A stretch of DNA of 64,000 nucleotides from Klebsiella phage phiKp_32. Below are positions 4,171 to 58,696 of this stretch, in pieces. The position numbers and the translations under genes were made by a program. The stretch lies in the sequence record LC768500.1. One strand, written 5' to 3'. Within the stretch, counting starts at the first letter, position 1. Every line of letters starts with the position of its first letter. The notes under the pieces were generated by a model, which worked only from the letters and a program-made list of their open reading frames with translations, did no database searches and was not told the DNA's origin.

Positions 4171-4253
4171 GCAAAATCGAAGTCCGGGACACTATCCTTA
4201 TTTAAACCTATATTACGACCTAATGAAACTTAATGGTTTATCGGGAGCATTTA

Positions 4254-5264
4254 ATGGGATCAAGTTTAAGGCGAGATTTAAAAGAATTAGAGGAACATCC
4301 TCATTTTAAGGGGTTCTATAAGTGTCTTAGAGATGGGAGATTATGGCTCAATCCAGATAGCAACAATTACGTTATTTTGGAGAAGGATGGGAAAACTAAG
4401 AAGTTTTTTCTTTCTAAGAGAACGTCCAAAGGAGCCAGAGAGTATTTGAGGGTAACTATTTACGATAGCGGGAAAGAGCAGAACTCCTATCTTTATCACG
4501 TTATCAATGCCGAAACATTTTTAATAAAGCCCGACATACCCGATAGAAAACTGGAAGTTAATCACAAGAATTCTGACAGATGGGACGGGAGAGTTGACAA
4601 TCTTGAATATGTGACATCGCAAGAAAACATACGCCACGCTGTTGAGGCTGGTTCTTTTAATACGTTATCGGGATTTATTATAGATTTAACTACTGGAGAT
4701 AAATATTTCTTTTTCAGTTATTCGAGATTAATAACCGACTGGGGTTTTGACAGGTCCTCGGCAGAAAGCTATTTAAAAACCGATATGTCAGTCCCGCTTC
4801 TGTTTAAATGGGGGATAGAATTTGTCGGAGGTAAAAAATGCACTCTGACCAATGAGGATGTCGGTAAGTTCAGGAGAACACCAAAGTCCCCGATAAAGAT
4901 TTTAAATAAATCAACTGGTGAGGTGTCATGGGCCGTTAGCATGAAGGATTGTGCAAAAAAGATAGACTGTTCTCCTAGATTAATACATAAATTATTCTTT
5001 GGAAAAAATTCCTTCAGGTTAAAACAATGGGAAATTTCTTTTATAAATAATTACGAGGATTTTTTAAAATATCATGAGTATAAATCCACCATCGGCAAGG
5101 TCGGGGGTGTGCCAAAACCTATTTTCTTTATTCATGATAAAACCGGGGAGAAACTATCTTTTAAAACCATTACTGAAGCCTCAAAATACTTTAAGATTAC
5201 AAGAGGGAATCTTTCATTCTTAAGAAAACGCGGAAGTAAATTTTTAGGTTATAGTATAATCTGA
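4254..5264 (+). CDS. HNH homing endonuclease (HNH_3-type, free-standing)
   Basis: Motif VNHKNSDRWDGRVDNLEYVTSQENIRHA equals the HNH_3 catalytic core. Codons are extremely AT-rich. Start placed at ATG 4254 after a GGGAG RBS, although the ORF opens at 4233. Flanked by terminators. Confidence 0.7.
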   Translation: MGSSLRRDLKELEEHPHFKGFYKCLRDGRLWLNPDSNNYVILEKDGKTKKFFLSKRTSKGAREYLRVTIYDSGKEQNSYLYHVINAETFLIKPDIPDRKLEVNHKNSDRWDGRVDNLEYVTSQENIRHAVEAGSFNTLSGFIIDLTTGDKYFFFSYSRLITDWGFDRSSAESYLKTDMSVPLLFKWGIEFVGGKKCTLTNEDVGKFRRTPKSPIKILNKSTGEVSWAVSMKDCAKKIDCSPRLIHKLFFGKNSFRLKQWEISFINNYEDFLKYHEYKSTIGKVGGVPKPIFFIHDKTGEKLSFKTITEASKYFKITRGNLSFLRKRGSKFLGYSII

Positions 5265-14979: not shown

Positions 14980-15087
14980 CCCCACCATCCTAGAACCATT
15001 TAATCGATTAAGTTGTTAACATCGGATATCCTTCCTTAGCGGGAGGGTATCCTTTAATAACCATTTCCCACAAAAAAGGAATACGAA

Positions 15088-45068: not shown

Positions 45069-45161
45069 AATAAGACAGATCTATATCATATTTAGAGAAC
45101 CGTGAAGGGTGTCTCATTTTCTCTTACACCCTTCACTTTTTTACTACGAGGAAATGAAAAA

Positions 45162-45830
45162 ATGAAGACCGTTTTTGGTTTAATGTTCGTTCTTATCATG
45201 GGGATAAGCAATGCACTCGCATCCGTGAGTTCGTCTCAATCAGACTATCACTACTTTAATAAACAGAAAGGTTATATTTTTGAAGCGTCTAAACTAACAG
45301 GGGTTTCTCCTGAATTAGTCACAGCCATAGGGTCCATCGAAAGTGGATTAGGTCGTAATAAGGTCAACAAATATTCTAAAGTCAAAGGTGTGATGCAAAC
45401 CACCAAGCGGACTTATAACTCTAACCTCAAGAAACACCACGAAAGACTTGGGTTATCTCCTAACGCTTCTATCAAAAACGATAGAGCAAATATCTTAGTT
45501 GCTACCGCAGCATTAGCAGATAACAAACGTTACTTAGAGAAAGTCACGAATAAAAAAATCACAGATGGGGATGTGTTCATTTCCCATCTGGTAGGTTTAG
45601 GTGGTGCAGCTAAAATAATTAAAGGTAAACCTAACGCCCCTATAAGCCGTTATATCACGCTTCATAAAGGGAACATGCGACTCTATACTGACAAAGGACG
45701 GGTATTGACCGTGGCGCAGTTTAGGAGGAGTATGGATCGGTTGGTAAAGAAAGAAAGCGCGAAGTATGCCGTGGTTATCAATCAGAACAAGTTGGATCGT
45801 TTGATAACAGCTGTCGCGTATAATCAATAA
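45162..45830 (+). CDS. lytic transglycosylase (SLT domain) with N-terminal signal peptide; endolysin or virion PG hydrolase candidate
   Basis: Signal peptide MKTVFGLMFVLIMGISNALA. The SLT catalytic motif is AIGSIESGLGRN and a GVMQ motif is present. Start set at ATG 45162 with a GAGGAAA RBS. The upstream part of the listed ORF is a terminator hairpin. Confidence 0.65.
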   Translation: MKTVFGLMFVLIMGISNALASVSSSQSDYHYFNKQKGYIFEASKLTGVSPELVTAIGSIESGLGRNKVNKYSKVKGVMQTTKRTYNSNLKKHHERLGLSPNASIKNDRANILVATAALADNKRYLEKVTNKKITDGDVFISHLVGLGGAAKIIKGKPNAPISRYITLHKGNMRLYTDKGRVLTVAQFRRSMDRLVKKESAKYAVVINQNKLDRLITAVAYNQ

Positions 45831-54439: not shown

Positions 54440-54818
54440 ATTATCGTTAGTCTCTATCATTTTTGGAATTGGGTTAGGTGTACTGCTGACTCTTTTTTGG
54501 ATTAAATTCTTAAAGGGAGTGTTGGAGAAGAAAGAAGCCGAAAGAAAACTTAAAGAGGAAGTATATGAAAAATCCAAGGAGTTAGACTCCTTGGTGTCGA
54601 AATTAAGAAGAGAGGTTCATAGTCTCGATGAGTTACTTAACCGCCCGGACTTCGCCGAACTGTACGATTTTCTTAAATGCGAAATAATAGTAAGGACCGA
54701 TTGCCTTTTCATTATTTCCCCGTTTTGGATCACCCCCAAAGAAGGCATCAAACACATCGCGATTCATTTAAATGCGGTTGACCGCATTTCCTCGCGTATT
54801 TTAGGTGAACTCTGTTAA
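54432..54818 (+). CDS. membrane-anchored coiled-coil protein
   Basis: 128-aa ORF with an N-terminal TM segment (LVSIIFGIGLGVLLTLFWI) and a charged helical region. It overlaps the upstream stop. Confidence 0.5.
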   Translation: MVELSLVSIIFGIGLGVLLTLFWIKFLKGVLEKKEAERKLKEEVYEKSKELDSLVSKLRREVHSLDELLNRPDFAELYDFLKCEIIVRTDCLFIISPFWITPKEGIKHIAIHLNAVDRISSRILGELC

Positions 54819-54854
54819 GTCCTATTTTTAAACTATACACTCATTAGGTAAATC

Positions 54855-55094
54855 ATGAAACTCAAAGATTATCAACATCACGTTTCTATCGTCCAACACG
54901 AAGATGGAAAAGAACTCCCCTATTTAAAACAAAAGACTTACTGTGGGGGTGAACCTGAACCTTGGATGTTCCAAGGCGCTGGGCACGCTATACTGGCGAT
55001 TTCTAATCAAAGCTACACACAACCCTGCCCTGAATGTGTTAAAGCCATACAGACGATTACAGAAGGGTATTTAAAGGAAAATTCCAATGGCTAA
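54855..55094 (+). CDS. small Cys-containing protein
   Basis: 79-aa ORF with YCGG...CPEC, a possible metal-binding site. Confidence 0.45.
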   Translation: MKLKDYQHHVSIVQHEDGKELPYLKQKTYCGGEPEPWMFQGAGHAILAISNQSYTQPCPECVKAIQTITEGYLKENSNG

Positions 55095-55190
55095 ATCCAA
55101 AATGTCCGACTTTATTGATATTGCCGTGCTATTCCTGGTAATATCTCTCGTCTTAACCTTTTTCTTTTACGCTATTATTAAATATGGATA
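55086..55190 (+). CDS. small single-TM peptide (34 aa), not in the ORF track
   Basis: Its ATG overlaps the upstream stop (ATGGCTAA) and its own stop overlaps the next start. Translated as MAKSKMSDFIDIAVLFLVISLVLTFFFYAIIKYG. Confidence 0.25.
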
Positions 55191-55534
55191 AAACTACTAT
55201 GTTTGACCTTATTAAACTTCTCGAGATTTTCCTGGGGTTCTTTATTTGCATTTTACTGATCGTTCTGCTCGTCATAACGACACGTAAGAATAAACGACCC
55301 CAGCTCCCTCCTACGCATGAAACCCTTCGGTACATCATCTCTGGCGCCCTACAGACGGGAGTTTATAATACTCCCGATCTTTATGTCGAACTCGCCTTAA
55401 AACTCTCTAAGGACTACGGAGAGCTCTTAAACGTTAAAATAGAGTACGATCATTTATCGTCGTCTAGCCATAAAACGTTTTATATAAAGGATTATACACT
55501 TAAACGAGTTTACCCGCTAACCTTTAACGCATAA
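55184..55534 (+). CDS. small membrane protein
   Basis: 116-aa ORF with an N-terminal TM segment (LEIFLGFFICILLIVLLVI). A terminator lies at 55545-55598. Confidence 0.5.
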   Translation: MDKTTMFDLIKLLEIFLGFFICILLIVLLVITTRKNKRPQLPPTHETLRYIISGALQTGVYNTPDLYVELALKLSKDYGELLNVKIEYDHLSSSSHKTFYIKDYTLKRVYPLTFNA

Positions 55535-55544
55535 AACGTTGATC

Positions 55545-55598
55545 TACTCCTACTCCCGTAATAGGGAGTAGGAGTACTCTTATGAATTTATTTTTAGT
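55545..55598 (+). terminator. terminator preceding the TnpB element
   Basis: TACTCCTACTCCC / GGGAGTAGGAGTA 13-bp stem, then a T-rich run. Confidence 0.75.
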
Positions 55599-55896
55599 TA
55601 ATTAATTAATGTTAAACCTAGGATAGTATAGTATAAATAGCTCTAGCGCAATATATTAGGCCTTCGGCCTAAAGGGCTAGGGTAAGTCTATTCGTTCGTT
55701 TCAGCATCAATCAAGGTATTCGCTACGCTCATACTTTCTTATGCTGATCGATGGGTAGAAAATCTTTCTATTTTAGTTAAATACCAGTTAAAACGGGTTT
55801 GGGCGACGTCTTTTTGAAAATTTAACTAGTGGCTATCATCTTGGTACTTAACTTATTTAATTTAAACTCTATATCATAAAGTCGGAGGAACTTATT

Positions 55897-57033
55897 ATGT
55901 TTATTTCTAAACGAGGTAAACTCCGGCTCTATAAAGAGGACGTGGAGTTAGTTAATCGCACCTTTGGTTGTCGGAGATTTGTATGGAATCAATTATTGGG
56001 TTTACACAAAGAGCGATATGAAAAATGGAAGGAAAATAATAACTTAGAAAAACCCACAGTTTCTATTTCTGCATTGAGAGAAGATTTTAAACGTATTAGA
56101 TCGGAGCATTCTTGGTTAAATGAAGTAAGTTCTGTTGCTTTATATGAGACCATTACTGATCTTTATAATGCCTTTCAACGCTTCTTCAATAATCAATCCG
56201 GTTACCCTAAGTTTAAATCTAAGAGAGGCGCGCAGACTTTTCGTATCACCTCTAGGGTCAACCTGCGGGTCGAGGGTAATATGGTTAGGTTACCCAAATC
56301 CAATTGTTATTCGATATTCTCTAAAAATACTGTCTTAAATGATCCTTCTTCTTATACCGTTACTAGGGATAGCGTAGGCGATTATTTCATCTCTTTCGTA
56401 GACCAAATTGATGAGATAGAGCCAGAACCCGAAAGTAAGGGCAAACATGTAGGGATCGATTTAGGAATTAAATCCTTAGCGATTGTTAAACCTAGTAAGG
56501 GAGAACCTTGGGAATTAATCAACCCTAGAACGTATACGAAATATCAAAAACGCAGAACGACGCTACAACGCCGTTTAATGAAAAAGAAGAAAGGGAGTAA
56601 AAACAGAAACAAAGCTAGAATTAAATTAGCGAAGTTAGAACGTAAAGTTGCTAATATTCGTAAAGATCTTTTACACAAATTTACGACTACACTGATTAAA
56701 GAAAACCAAATGATCAGTATCGAAGATTTAAATGTAAAAGGGATGTTAAAAAACCATAGCTTGGCTAAACATATTCAGGATTGTTCTTTTGGTACAATTA
56801 GAACGATGCTGGAATATAAAGCTAAACGTTATACTCGAAATAAAACGATCACCATCGTTAATCGGTTCTTTGCAAGCACTCAACTTTGTTCTCAGTGCGG
56901 TGTTCTCCCTAAAGAGCGTATCGGACTTAAAATCAGGAACTGGGTATGTTGGAACTGCGGCACTAAACACGATAGAGATATTAACGCTGCTACGAATATC
57001 CTTAACCAAGGATTACGTTTAACAACCTCCTAG
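55897..57033 (+). CDS. tnpB: TnpB (IS605 OrfB), RuvC-like RNA-guided nuclease family
   Basis: N-terminus is LRLYKEDVELVNRTFGCRRFVWNQ. RuvC-I is HVGIDLGIKSLA and RuvC-II is ISIEDLNVKGM. The zinc ribbon is CSQCG...CWNCG and RuvC-III is HDRDINAATNIL. Confidence 0.85.
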   Translation: MFISKRGKLRLYKEDVELVNRTFGCRRFVWNQLLGLHKERYEKWKENNNLEKPTVSISALREDFKRIRSEHSWLNEVSSVALYETITDLYNAFQRFFNNQSGYPKFKSKRGAQTFRITSRVNLRVEGNMVRLPKSNCYSIFSKNTVLNDPSSYTVTRDSVGDYFISFVDQIDEIEPEPESKGKHVGIDLGIKSLAIVKPSKGEPWELINPRTYTKYQKRRTTLQRRLMKKKKGSKNRNKARIKLAKLERKVANIRKDLLHKFTTTLIKENQMISIEDLNVKGMLKNHSLAKHIQDCSFGTIRTMLEYKAKRYTRNKTITIVNRFFASTQLCSQCGVLPKERIGLKIRNWVCWNCGTKHDRDINAATNILNQGLRLTTS

Positions 57034-57250
57034 GTTAAGGGTATTTATTACCCTTGGTCTGAGGGGAAGTTAAGCCTGTGGAGACAAGTTGCAGTAAGGA
57101 CTTTCTATGAAGCAGGAAGTTGAAATATACAAGACATCTTACACTCACCCATGCAACCTGGAGAGAAACCCCGACTGAACAAAGTTGTTTATTCCTTCTC
57201 AGGGGAATAAACAGTTCGTCGGCTAAAGACATAGGATGTTTTATGATCAG
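56900..57250 (+). ncRNA. putative TnpB guide RNA (omega/right-end RNA) overlapping the tnpB 3' end and right-end hairpins
   Basis: Inferred from the known IS605 TnpB architecture. Hairpin AAGGGTATTTATTACCCTT lies immediately after the stop codon, and the 11-bp stem TTGTTTATTCC/GGAATAAACA lies at 57193-57221. Boundaries are not determinable by eye. Confidence 0.3.
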
Positions 57251-57308
57251 TAAAGAAATACGATAATCTAAACTTATTAGTTCAAACACTGTAATCTAGG
57301 AGATAACC

Positions 57309-57425
57309 ATGAATATCGTAATGCCACTAAAGCTACTCGGAGGGTTACTTATCCTGGGAGTGGGTTTTGGATTACTGGTTTATCTCATCGTTAAACTCTC
57401 TGTTAAAATGGCGTATAAGAAATGA
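57309..57425 (+). CDS. small hydrophobic peptide (38 aa, single TM), not in the ORF track
   Basis: GGAG RBS at 57298. Translated as MNIVMPLKLLGGLLILGVGFGLLVYLIVKLSVKMAYKK. Its stop overlaps the next start (ATGA). Confidence 0.3.
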   Translation: MNIVMPLKLLGGLLILGVGFGLLVYLIVKLSVKMAYKK

Positions 57426-57889
57426 GTGAAGAAGAGTTATCATTAGGTTATATTTCAGTTAAAGTCATTCCCACTCAGGAAGACATTCTTAAAGATAAGG
57501 TGTTGGATGCGGGATGTCTTCCGTTAGATGAAGGGGCATATCACGCTACTCTTATTTTTGATATTCATCAAGATGGCGTGATCCCTAACGTACCTATGAT
57601 CCCTGAAAAGATCTTCGAGGGAAAGGTTATTGGAATCAAGGAACTCGGAGAGCGTAAAGGAGATATTATCTCAGCCGTTGTACTCGAACTGGATTCTCCT
57701 GAATTGACAGAAGAGCATGATCGGTTAATACAATGTGGGTATGGTCATTCCTATCCGGATTACATCCCCCATATTTCGCTCGCTTACAAGGTCACAGAAG
57801 AGCAAATGGAAGATCTCAAACGACAGTGTGAGTCGCTTATTGGTAAAACGTTCTACTTATCCGGAGAGAGCATCGACTGGATAGATTAA
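57422..57889 (+). CDS. 2H phosphoesterase family protein (Acb1-like anti-CBASS candidate / LigT-like)
   Basis: Two H-x-T/S-x motifs in hydrophobic context (AYHATLIF and PHISLAY), spaced as in 2H enzymes. The size (155 aa) matches phage Acb1-type cyclic-nucleotide phosphodiesterases. Confidence 0.55.
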   Translation: MSEEELSLGYISVKVIPTQEDILKDKVLDAGCLPLDEGAYHATLIFDIHQDGVIPNVPMIPEKIFEGKVIGIKELGERKGDIISAVVLELDSPELTEEHDRLIQCGYGHSYPDYIPHISLAYKVTEEQMEDLKRQCESLIGKTFYLSGESIDWID

Positions 57890-57902
57890 GAGGTAAAGGG
57901 GT

Positions 57903-58331
57903 ATGTCTGATAAACTTACTGTATCACTTTTTAAGCTTATAAAAAACCATACTGGGTTAACGTTAAAGGAAGGCGAATTCTCTTTAACGGGAGAAAGACC
58001 CTTTTGGTTCAGAATACCTCCTTTCTCCCTTAACCCCAGTTCAAGAGATAGATTGAGAGATCTCTTTCAAGATAACTTTGATGTGACTGTAGTTGATTAT
58101 GTCGACGATTACCAGATCATATTCAGCCAAATTGAACCAACAACTTCTCGTCGTATAAAACGAGTCAGGAACATCCTAGATGTGTTAGAAAGAGAGTACG
58201 GTAGAAACTGTCTCAGACCAGAAACTGGTAGAATCTTGAGCGGATATTACTCTACTCATAAAGACAGAATAGAACAGGAAGAACTTGCTTATAATAAAAA
58301 GATTTTAAATGAAGCTTTACGACGACGTTAA
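57903..58331 (+). CDS. hypothetical protein (basic C-terminus)
   Basis: 142-aa ORF with a GAGG RBS. Confidence 0.5.
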   Translation: MSDKLTVSLFKLIKNHTGLTLKEGEFSLTGERPFWFRIPPFSLNPSSRDRLRDLFQDNFDVTVVDYVDDYQIIFSQIEPTTSRRIKRVRNILDVLEREYGRNCLRPETGRILSGYYSTHKDRIEQEELAYNKKILNEALRRR

Positions 58332-58372
58332 TCTTATGCAATATTTTTAATCTTAAAACGTGGGGTGGGTAA

Positions 58373-58696
58373 ATGACGTACGATGAAGTCGAGAAATATC
58401 TGGAAATGGGAGAGGCTATCTCTAAGGGTAGTTGGAAAGCTAACGAAGCGGTTTATTTAGAGCCGACGACGTTACTTAATCCAGCGCACTATCCTGAGTG
58501 TTTAAAGGCCGCGGGTATTAACTCCCTTTTGAGAGTCGATCGACATTTAGTGCGTGTTACCGCGAGTAACACTGTTGAGCGTTTTATTCCCAACATTGTA
58601 GAAAGAAAAGAAAACGATTGGTACGTTAAGAGTTATACCTTCGAACAAAATAAAGCATTGCCAGAACATAATCAAACCCAAGAAGAAGCTGCATAA
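58373..58696 (+). CDS. DUF2829-like protein (Tad2-type anti-Thoeris sponge candidate)
   Basis: The N-terminal pattern YDEVEKYLEMGEAISKGSW resembles the DUF2829 helix-G-x-W opening (F-x-EAL-x-ALKEGKKVRRxGW). ENDWYV near the C-terminus resembles the conserved AEDWEIV. The match is weak and by eye only. Confidence 0.3.
   Translation: MTYDEVEKYLEMGEAISKGSWKANEAVYLEPTTLLNPAHYPECLKAAGINSLLRVDRHLVRVTASNTVERFIPNIVERKENDWYVKSYTFEQNKALPEHNQTQEEAA

Follow-up and report, generated by a model that had tools for sequence, protein, structure and literature searches.

Why would a lytic phage carry, alone in an intergenic gap, a gene for the RNA-guided nuclease TnpB? This question is raised by a stretch of 64,000 nucleotides (nt) from Klebsiella phage phiKp_32 (LC768500.1), which was analysed as a whole and is called the window below; all positions refer to it. 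We found positions 55744-57137 to be occupied by a discrete insertion composed of a left end (LE), the tnpB gene and a right end (RE) that probably encodes an omega-RNA. On the evidence set out below we consider it likely that this is a non-autonomous IS200/IS605-type element without TnpA, which would act by RNA-guided homing or by cutting the DNA of competitors.

Identification of a full-length TnpB

In a first-pass annotation made from the letters of the window, the locus had been described as a full-length TnpB with intact RuvC I, II and III motifs and zinc ribbon. The gene is the sole long open reading frame (ORF) in 55534-57422 and encodes 378 amino acids.

55897-57033, + strand: tnpB, predicted RNA-guided RuvC nuclease of the ISDra2 type (Pfam, NCBIfam and structure-sequence match)
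55884-55889, + strand: GGAGGA, ribosome-binding site of tnpB, 7 nt 5' of the ATG (read from the sequence)

Pfam searches with this ORF gave strong matches to OrfB_IS605 (PF01385; 7.6e-30, 104 bits, cut-off 30.5), to the zinc ribbon Cas12f1-like_TNB (PF07282; 8.6e-20, 71 bits, cut-off 26.3) and to HTH_OrfB_IS605 (PF12323; 8.6e-8, 32 bits, cut-off 21). The NCBIfam model guided_TnpB (NF040570) was matched with 296 bits at a cut-off of 100 and the equivalog-level model IS200_TnpB (NF038281) with 340.6 bits, below its cut-off of 425; judged by these profiles, the protein belongs to the broader guided_TnpB subfamily and lies outside the narrow IS200_TnpB model. Alignment with the ISDra2 TnpB structures 8H1J and 8EXA was collinear over the full length (E 1.9e-55). 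In an alignment of the window TnpB with its 24 closest relatives (25 members, 48-85% identity), Asp188 (GIDLG), Glu276 (IEDLN) and Asp361 (HDRDIN) as well as the zinc ligands Cys331, Cys334, Cys351 and Cys354 were invariant. The three acidic residues were assigned as the RuvC triad by comparison with D191/E278/D361, the known triad of ISDra2 TnpB. By these sequence criteria the ORF is a full-length ISDra2-type TnpB with intact RuvC and zinc-finger residues, as originally described. The gene is already annotated in GenBank, where an identical protein (100%) is listed as 'IS200/IS605 family element RNA-guided endonuclease TnpB [Klebsiella phage phiKp_32]' on a contig of 251,460 bp.

The ratio of nonsynonymous to synonymous substitution rates (dN/dS) between the window tnpB and its paralogs ranged from 0.12 to 0.28 in every pair, which indicates purifying selection on these genes. 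The ribosome-binding site is conserved as TCGGAGGAA in five related elements (L006, L096, L097, L098 and L104; the prefix L denotes loci compared in this analysis). Association with a type V CRISPR-Cas system was ruled out, as no repeat array was found between positions 52 kb and 61 kb and the Cas12f2 and C2c8 effector models scored only 56-69 bits against cut-offs of 350-450.

Boundaries of the element

Comparison with seven uninterrupted relatives, namely L001-L004 and the metagenomic loci L096, L100 and L103, delimited the element. Homology to these relatives runs to 55745 and picks up again at 57138 with an overlap of 2 nt. The insertion therefore covers 55744-57137 (1,394 bp) or, given the 2-nt CT ambiguity, 55746-57139. 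The unoccupied allele reads ...CATACTTTCTTATG CT TACACTCACCCATGCAACC, and the occupied allele of the window reads ...TTATG, followed by the element CTGATCGATGG...AAGACAT and the flank CTTACACTC... By this comparison the element is a discrete IS200/IS605-type insertion without TnpA in an intergenic region.

55744-55896, + strand: left end (LE), 153 nt (break of homology with the relatives; 2-nt CT ambiguity)

The relatives, with their clean unoccupied site, support the discrete insertion that the first-pass annotation had proposed and correct its extent. Of the two findings that it had named as refuting its reading, a lack of TnpB/OrfB profile matches and flanks in relatives that speak against a discrete insertion, neither was obtained. 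It had placed the element at 55600-57290, about 145 nt too far on the left and about 150 nt too far on the right. A UUCG-capped stem (55656-55672) and a hairpin given as 57193-57221, which really spans 57186-57213, had both been read as parts of the element ends; like a terminator-like hairpin at 55545-55576, they belong to the phage backbone and occur verbatim in most of the uninterrupted relatives. The proposed structured left region of about 360 nt thus contained about 145 nt of flank. An Rfam scan of the uninterrupted intergenic region of L001 gave sub-threshold chance matches only. The hairpin at 57037-57055, the only named one inside the element, is real and forms the core of helix 1 of the RE described below.

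About 110 nt of the LE are homologous to the LE of the L103 element, whereas homology to the LEs of the L096 and L098 elements is confined to the final ~47 nt. For the first ~50 nt (55744-55794) no match was obtained anywhere searched, and blastn of 55740-55900 against the phage collection likewise gave none. Inspection of the sequence revealed one small hairpin with a 6-bp stem (TAGAAA-ATC-TTTCTA) at about 55755-55769. The last 30 nt of the window right end have no hairpin, those of L007 and L100 carry one just 5' of AAGACA, and LE and right end share no recognisable hairpin or similarity. An origin of the LE as flank carried over from another backbone site was considered and dropped, its support being limited to the 8-nt GGGTTTGG.

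A Y1 TnpA gene is absent from 55744-57137, which leaves no space for one. Pfam scanning of the 57 other window ORFs (10 large, 47 small) detected neither a Y1 transposase (PF01797) nor a serine recombinase, in line with the initial statement that TnpA is missing, and no TnpA is annotated beside any of 15 related elements.

Right end and predicted omega-RNA

The RE, taken here from 57020, overlaps the 3' end of tnpB and is predicted to fold into three helices.

57020-57137, + strand: right end (RE), candidate omega-RNA scaffold (conservation, covariation), ending in ...AAGACAT
57026-57043 with 57049-57066, + strand: RE helix 1, spanning the stop codon and containing the 57037-57055 hairpin
57075-57079 with 57112-57116, + strand: RE helix 2
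57083-57090 with 57099-57105, + strand: RE helix 3

The RE is the best-conserved part of the element: nucleotide identity of related elements to the window copy is 88-100% in the last ~140 nt of the element, compared to 34-97% within the coding region. When the 3' regions of 12 related elements were aligned, conservation reached about 104 nt beyond the stop codon and stopped abruptly at ...(A/G)AGACA+N in all 12, with unrelated sequence beyond. The window RE is 100% identical to that of phage BUCTxx100, though the TnpB proteins share only 63% identity.

The minimum-energy fold of the single sequence corresponds to the three-helix model (z = -2.65). A covariance model of the RE (R1) detected the window copy with 143 bits as its sole significant match in the window. 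The 64 kb contain one TnpB gene and one right-end sequence. The same model recovered all paralogs, Pseudomonas phage EL (52 bits) and L101 (32 bits), and some 30 distant phage loci gave weak matches exactly 3' of their TnpB genes. In an alignment of 16 RE sequences, which was fitted to the covariance model, 97.3% of the cells were paired and nine pairs were changed on both sides, values not equalled by any of 500 shuffles; in slid controls pairing dropped to 38-57%. Six of the seven helix 3 pairs showed compensatory changes. Structure-blind MAFFT alignments also displayed the swaps AAGT/ACTT to GGGT/ACCC, AAGC/GCTT and CAG/CTG. The RE is thus a plausible omega-RNA scaffold, and the covariation indicates that it probably encodes an omega-RNA. 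The first-pass annotation had predicted such a transcript from the tnpB 3' end and the right end; its origin is probable in the light of the covariance support, and its predicted end is moved from 57250 to near 57153.

The default RNAalifold fold, in which the coding 3' end pairs differently (56995-57012 with 57028-57045), was set aside for the local hairpin model because the columns of this rival pairing are invariant under coding constraint, and because EL breaks it and carries compensatory changes for the hairpin. The two arms of the rival pairing (18 nt) are 89% complementary and exclude the local hairpin of helix 1. They could form an alternative conformation of the omega-RNA or the mRNA, on which covariation is uninformative since the coding arm is invariant.

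The helix 3 variants ACAAGTT/GGACTTT and CCGGGTT/AACCCCC are out of step with the protein tree, and the elements are mosaic, the 3' coding half of the window element being nearest to L005, L092 and L095 (85-97%). Both observations point to recombination between elements.

Predicted guide and candidate target motif

The bases next to the two element boundaries suggest how the nuclease would be directed, with the first bases of the right flank as guide and a pentamer before the left boundary as candidate transposon-adjacent motif (TAM).

57138-57153, + strand: predicted 16-nt guide CTTACACTCACCCATG, first bases of the right flank, abutting the RE boundary
55739-55743, + strand: TTATG, candidate TAM, directly 5' of the insertion

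The uninterrupted combination of TTATG and CTTACACTCACCCATG is perfect in six relatives (L001-L004, L096 and L103), and L100 has a single TAM-distal mismatch in the 16-mer. These targets agree with the earlier suggestion that the flanking 16 nt are the guide. Within the window the 16-mer is unique at up to three mismatches and is preceded by GACAT, not TTATG; self-targeting is therefore not expected. The pentamer TTATG also stands 5' of the insertions of phage VB_ZK_P1 (L005) and L096, whose unoccupied sites are known, and in L095 before the homologous left-end start. Reading every right end as ...GACA+N yielded 5' contexts for nine junctions, which were TTATG (four elements), AAATG (two), CTACG, ATACG and TCGAT; WAYG, mostly TATG, fits eight of the nine.

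The guide differs with each insertion site. A scan of 185,579 species genomes for an exact TAM plus guide returned one match, a 1.8-kb contig labelled as a Spirochaetia metagenome-assembled genome (MAG) that is really a fragment of a phage similar to Klebsiella phage Miami. The guide is therefore not aimed at the host, and host targeting was ruled out. The idea that new sites arise by TnpB cutting look-alikes of an old guide was rejected as a general explanation because the guides of the window and L103 elements are unrelated. The targets of L096 and L006 share AATATTTT, which may be due to chance. The TAM core TATG is identical to the four-base late-promoter consensus, T(-3)ATG(+1), of the phiKZ non-virion RNA polymerase (PMC7598289), which may be a coincidence.

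Related elements and site polymorphism

Homologs of the window TnpB were present in 419 of 50,697 phage records. The paralogs of Miami (78% amino acid identity to the window TnpB), BUCTxx100 (63%) and VB_ZK_P1 (87%) each occupy a different locus, at which every other relative is unoccupied. Klebsiella phages KPN8 and YC1 appear to have no TnpB of this clade, as deduced from the identity bands of the protein search. PhiKp_32 itself has a second TnpB copy elsewhere in its genome (P0012), and one JGI metagenome contains three different elements, one of which is of the Miami type at the Miami site. Divergence is far greater between the TnpB paralogs than between the phage backbones.

The window in turn contains four unoccupied sites of other elements, 15009-15017, 45148-45155, 57409/57410 and 58339-58345. 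The first of these is the BUCTxx100-type target and the second the L094-type target. At 45148-45164 the window and the right flank of L094 differ by one extra G (GAGGAAATGAAAAAATG vs GAGGAAATAAAAAATG), which could have arisen as an escape change or as a by-product of the insertion.

Clade members with more than about 48% identity all belonged, wherever they could be placed, to phage genomes or phage-like contigs; below this value, identity falls to that of ordinary bacterial TnpBs (<=45%). Searching IMG/VR with the window protein alone gave no match, and searching it with the clade alignment returned only EL (53%) and distant TnpBs with <=45% identity. A truncated relative of 254 amino acids (P0016) is encoded in another phage genome.

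Pseudomonas phage EL and three relatives carry the 53% paralog at one site where five other EL-like phages are without it. In EL this protein has been named 'putative transposase' ORF037 (L008, 41045-42187), which is a TnpB of this clade, and the element is flanked by a promoter-like motif on one side and by the RNA polymerase beta gene on the other. The unoccupied allele of phage MIZ-Pa99 (L102) shares CAGGAA(GTT)TGAGGTTAAAAC with the EL right end, and the annotated start of the polymerase gene differs by 19 codons between the two phages. These features suggest that the EL insertion was a complex or imprecise event. The record of MIZ-Pa99 (PV472050.1) has the taxonomy line Pantevenvirales; Straboviridae, which does not agree with the 98% identity between this phage and Elvirus EL.

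Proposed mechanism

We propose that a transcript of the tnpB 3' end, the RE and about 16 nt of flank would be processed into an omega-RNA, on the model of ISDra2 and the IS605 elements of Geobacillus, with the three-helix RE as scaffold and CTTACACTCACCCATG as guide. The TnpB-omega-RNA complex would cut DNA containing TTATG followed by CTTACACTCACCCATG, which is the uninterrupted allele of every sequenced relative, and the phage's own target, being interrupted by the element, would be protected. When occupied and unoccupied phages infect the same cell, the break made in the unoccupied genome could be repaired from the occupied one and the element thereby copied, which would amount to non-restorative homing and thus to a gene drive. 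Alternatively, the break would merely damage the competitor.

This proposal is favoured because profile and structure matches of the TnpB are strong and its catalytic and zinc residues invariant, because the element is a discrete insertion with a covarying RE and intact TAM plus guide targets in relatives, because of the dN/dS values and the site polymorphism, and because a homing model has been published. TnpB homing has been described for chromosomes (PMC10055086) and for plasmids (PMC11870625); for co-infecting phages, homing has been proposed and is still described as theoretical (PMC13565253). The homing or anti-competitor role put forward in the first-pass annotation fits the guide/target geometry and, like omega-RNA expression, TAM specificity and cleavage, is something we infer.

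Several points weigh against this proposal. The window element is known from one genome (a cluster of 1), so that the spread of this particular copy is undocumented. The candidate TAM was derived from nine junctions only, and the misfit TCGAT belongs to L007, the most divergent paralog. An Rfam scan of 54500-58500 produced sub-threshold chance matches only and no curated omega-RNA family. Finally, the TnpB of a nucleus-forming phage would have to reach the DNA of the competitor.

Left junctions and the possible role of TnpA

The left junctions bear on the question whether the element instead is a canonical transposon served by a TnpA in trans, encoded in the rest of the 251-kb genome or by a host IS200/IS605 element, with TnpB restoring the element after excision. 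The LEs are not conserved between paralogs and extend 4-153 nt before the start codon. Where an unoccupied site is known, the flanking direct repeats measure 2 nt in the window element and VB_ZK_P1, 7 nt in L096, 8 nt in L094 (the ribosome-binding site of the next gene) and 12 nt in BUCTxx100 (L007; 11 of 12 matching). L092, for which only the occupied site is known, has a 9-nt repeat. Miami has a left-side deletion of 18 nt joined at the microhomology ATTAT, and L103 one of 39 nt joined at GGGTTTGG, which also occurs inside the window LE. The right junction is exact in all copies.

The window copy itself looks like a clean IS605-style insertion, 3' of the TAM-like pentamer TTATG and with no real target duplication (the 2-nt ambiguity), and its 153-nt LE contains a small hairpin. 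The window and L103 elements, with ~85% identical TnpBs and about 110 nt of common LE, lie at two different TAM-like sites, which implies that true transposition occurred in the past. Against a TnpA acting in trans stand the lack of such a gene in the 64 kb and beside the 15 related elements, the lack of recognisable matching hairpins in LE and RE, and other copies with 7-12-nt repeats or microhomology-linked left deletions, which are not what TnpA transposition predicts. We therefore regard this explanation as unlikely.

The left junctions might instead be scars of the repair of TnpB-induced breaks, that is, traces of TnpA-free RNA-guided homing between co-infecting phiKZ-like phages; we put this forward tentatively and with more doubt than conviction. 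As TnpB cleaves its target at the TAM-distal end, the left DNA end of the recipient would keep the TAM and target bases t1..t~17, a tail non-homologous to the donor. If a retained part of this tail primed in the donor LE, the product would be TAM-t1..tk-(truncated LE)...RE-t1..tk, which matches the repeats of 7 nt in L096, 8 nt in L094, 9 nt in L092 and 12 nt in L007. Over-resection combined with microhomology would yield left deletions such as the 18 nt of Miami and the 39 nt of L103. In the reading of the junctions that we prefer, first insertions would have been made by TnpA at WAYG sites, with later spread through TnpB breaks repaired from an occupied genome, and the repeats and deletions would come from faulty processing of the tail.

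A conserved motif upstream of tnpB may concern the expression of the element.

55861-55877, + strand: degenerate copy of the left-end motif TTTAAACCTAYATTAY, which may serve tnpB as a promoter of the phage type

The motif TTTAAACCTAYATTAY stands 20-75 nt 5' of the start codon in L096, L097, L098, L099, L101 and EL, and copies occur in the window backbone at 4196-4216 and 9789. In EL-like phages it forms part of the backbone 5' of the RNA polymerase beta gene, and the EL element is inserted directly behind the motif. PhiKZ-type phages have their own polymerases, which transcribe from early motifs that are short and rich in AT and from a late motif, TATG (PMC7598289). The left-end motif may thus be a phage-type promoter, an idea based on its position and conservation, not on enrichment, as AACCTATATTAT at up to two mismatches was seen six times in the window compared to 7.8 expected. 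A free-standing HNH endonuclease gene at 4233-5264 (phrog_59, 5e-22) is preceded at 4196-4216 by TTATTTAAACCTATATTAC, the TnpB-clade motif. That the element has adapted to phages with their own RNA polymerases through a promoter motif common with this HNH homing endonuclease gene is conceivable, and this idea and the repair scars together form a pair of conjectures that we would sooner question than adopt.

Less likely alternatives: an inert or domesticated element

The element could also be an inert passenger, a decaying insertion sequence remnant with neither active nuclease nor guide that sits harmlessly in an intergenic spacer. Such a fate would suit the absence of TnpA from the window, the unconserved and often truncated LEs of the paralogs and the existence of the truncated relative P0016 in another phage. 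It is at odds with a full-length ORF that retains the invariant D-E-D and zinc ligands, with the low dN/dS in all pairs and with a non-coding RE that is better conserved than the coding sequence and carries compensatory changes, and we consider it quite unlikely.

TldR proteins are nuclease-dead. A domesticated RNA-guided factor serving the phage, either as a TldR-like repressor or as a nuclease against the host or unrelated competitors, is very unlikely: the element adjoins the anti-defence genes Acb1 (57422-57889) and Tad2-like (58373-58696), and phage-encoded TldR regulating host genes has been described (PMC13418256), but the RuvC residues of the window TnpB are intact, the only match of its guide is the allelic site in sister phages, TAM plus guide matched none of the bacterial genomes scanned apart from the phage fragment, and guides change with the insertion site as expected for a mobile element.

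Carrier phage and neighbouring genes

The flanks of the element are 91-97% identical to Klebsiella phages Miami, KPN8 and YC1, Raoultella phage VB_ZK_P1 and 'Stenotrophomonas' phage BUCTxx100, five close relatives with genomes of 252-257 kb. The window encodes a phiKZ-type major capsid protein (PhiKZ_MCP, E 1.4e-162), an NAD ligase and an SMC-like protein, as well as a DnaB-like helicase, a polymerase, virion proteins and RNase H. By its gene content the carrier phiKp_32 is a phiKZ-like Klebsiella jumbo phage with a lytic backbone, and the intergenic gap of a lytic-phage-like genome that had been recognised from the sequence is thereby confirmed.

To the right of the element, the ORF at 57422-57889 encodes a homolog of Acb1, a phosphodiesterase directed against the cyclic oligonucleotide-based antiphage signalling system (anti-CBASS; PF23474, 2.8e-13), which is annotated as 'RNA ligase' in Miami and KPN8. 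The protein encoded at 58373-58696 has a Tad2-like anti-Thoeris domain (PF11195, 8.5e-5). From these matches, the two genes beside the element look like a small anti-defence island. Four different TnpB paralogs are inserted within 2.7 kb around Acb1, at 55745, 57227, 57409/57410 and 58339-58345. They comprise the window element and those of L100, L103 and L096 and represent independent events in different Miami-like phages, and the surroundings of Acb1 look like an insertion hotspot for TnpB paralogs. The L100 and L103 insertions destroy an ORF of 38 amino acids at 57311-57427.

L103 is a contig of 1,771 bp (SABI01000451.1) deposited as 'MAG: Spirochaetia bacterium'. It consists of sequence 80-99% identical to window backbone segments between 55651 and 57517 plus a TnpB element. 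L103 is part of the genome of a Miami-like jumbo phage of the Klebsiella type, and the Spirochaetia label is probably a binning error.

Significance and comparison with known systems

TnpB genes are common in phages, where so far only proposed roles have been assigned to them. The cultured phages phiKp_32, Miami, KPN8, YC1, VB_ZK_P1 and BUCTxx100 constitute a natural test system, as their backbones are 91-97% identical and they differ by distinct TnpB elements at known sites, for which the present analysis provides predicted guides, candidate TAMs and unoccupied alleles. Pairwise co-infection would allow a direct test of RNA-guided gene drive or competitor killing in phages, and could also show whether the nuclease has access to DNA in a phiKZ-type compartment, if such phages form one. 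The left-junction anomalies, if they are true repair scars, would provide a sequence signature of past homing in genomes.

The window TnpB resembles ISDra2 TnpB in domain order, length, the RuvC D-E-D and the CxxC...CxxC arrangement. The elements are also alike in that a structured RNA-coding RE overlaps the stop codon and abuts the boundary, the guide comes from the flank, and a T-rich 5-nt motif lies 5' of the LE. The TAM of ISDra2 is TTGAT. In contrast, the candidate TAM of the window element is TTATG (WAYG), a tnpA partner is missing, the carrier is a lytic jumbo phage and the LE is not conserved among close paralogs.

Like the free-standing homing endonucleases Seg and Mob of T4-like phages, which perform 'intronless homing', the window element is an intergenic nuclease gene with a patchy distribution among near-identical phages. 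Its predicted target is likewise the allelic site of co-infecting relatives (concept in PMC13565253), and its promoter-like motif is common with an HNH endonuclease gene of the same genome. Unlike Seg and Mob, it would recognise its target by an RNA guide instead of the protein, and self would differ from non-self in having an interrupted target, as is the case in intron homing, and not by substitutions.

The plasmid gene drive of IS605 (PMC11870625, summarised in PMC13565253) is comparable in being a TnpB-dependent and TnpA-independent spread to unoccupied copies; it was demonstrated by experiment for multicopy plasmids, whereas for phage genomes it is here only deduced. With TldR the element has in common a phage-borne protein of the TnpB family and a guide RNA coded downstream, which is predicted here. 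It differs by a full-length TnpB with intact triad and zinc finger and by a guide that matches the allele of sister phages, not a host promoter. Seen beside these systems, the element embodies no new principle and is a well-delimited example of the solo TnpB/omega-RNA elements found widely among phages; guided by its RNA, it would most likely cut the unoccupied allele of co-infecting sister phages, with homing or damage to the competitor as the outcome.

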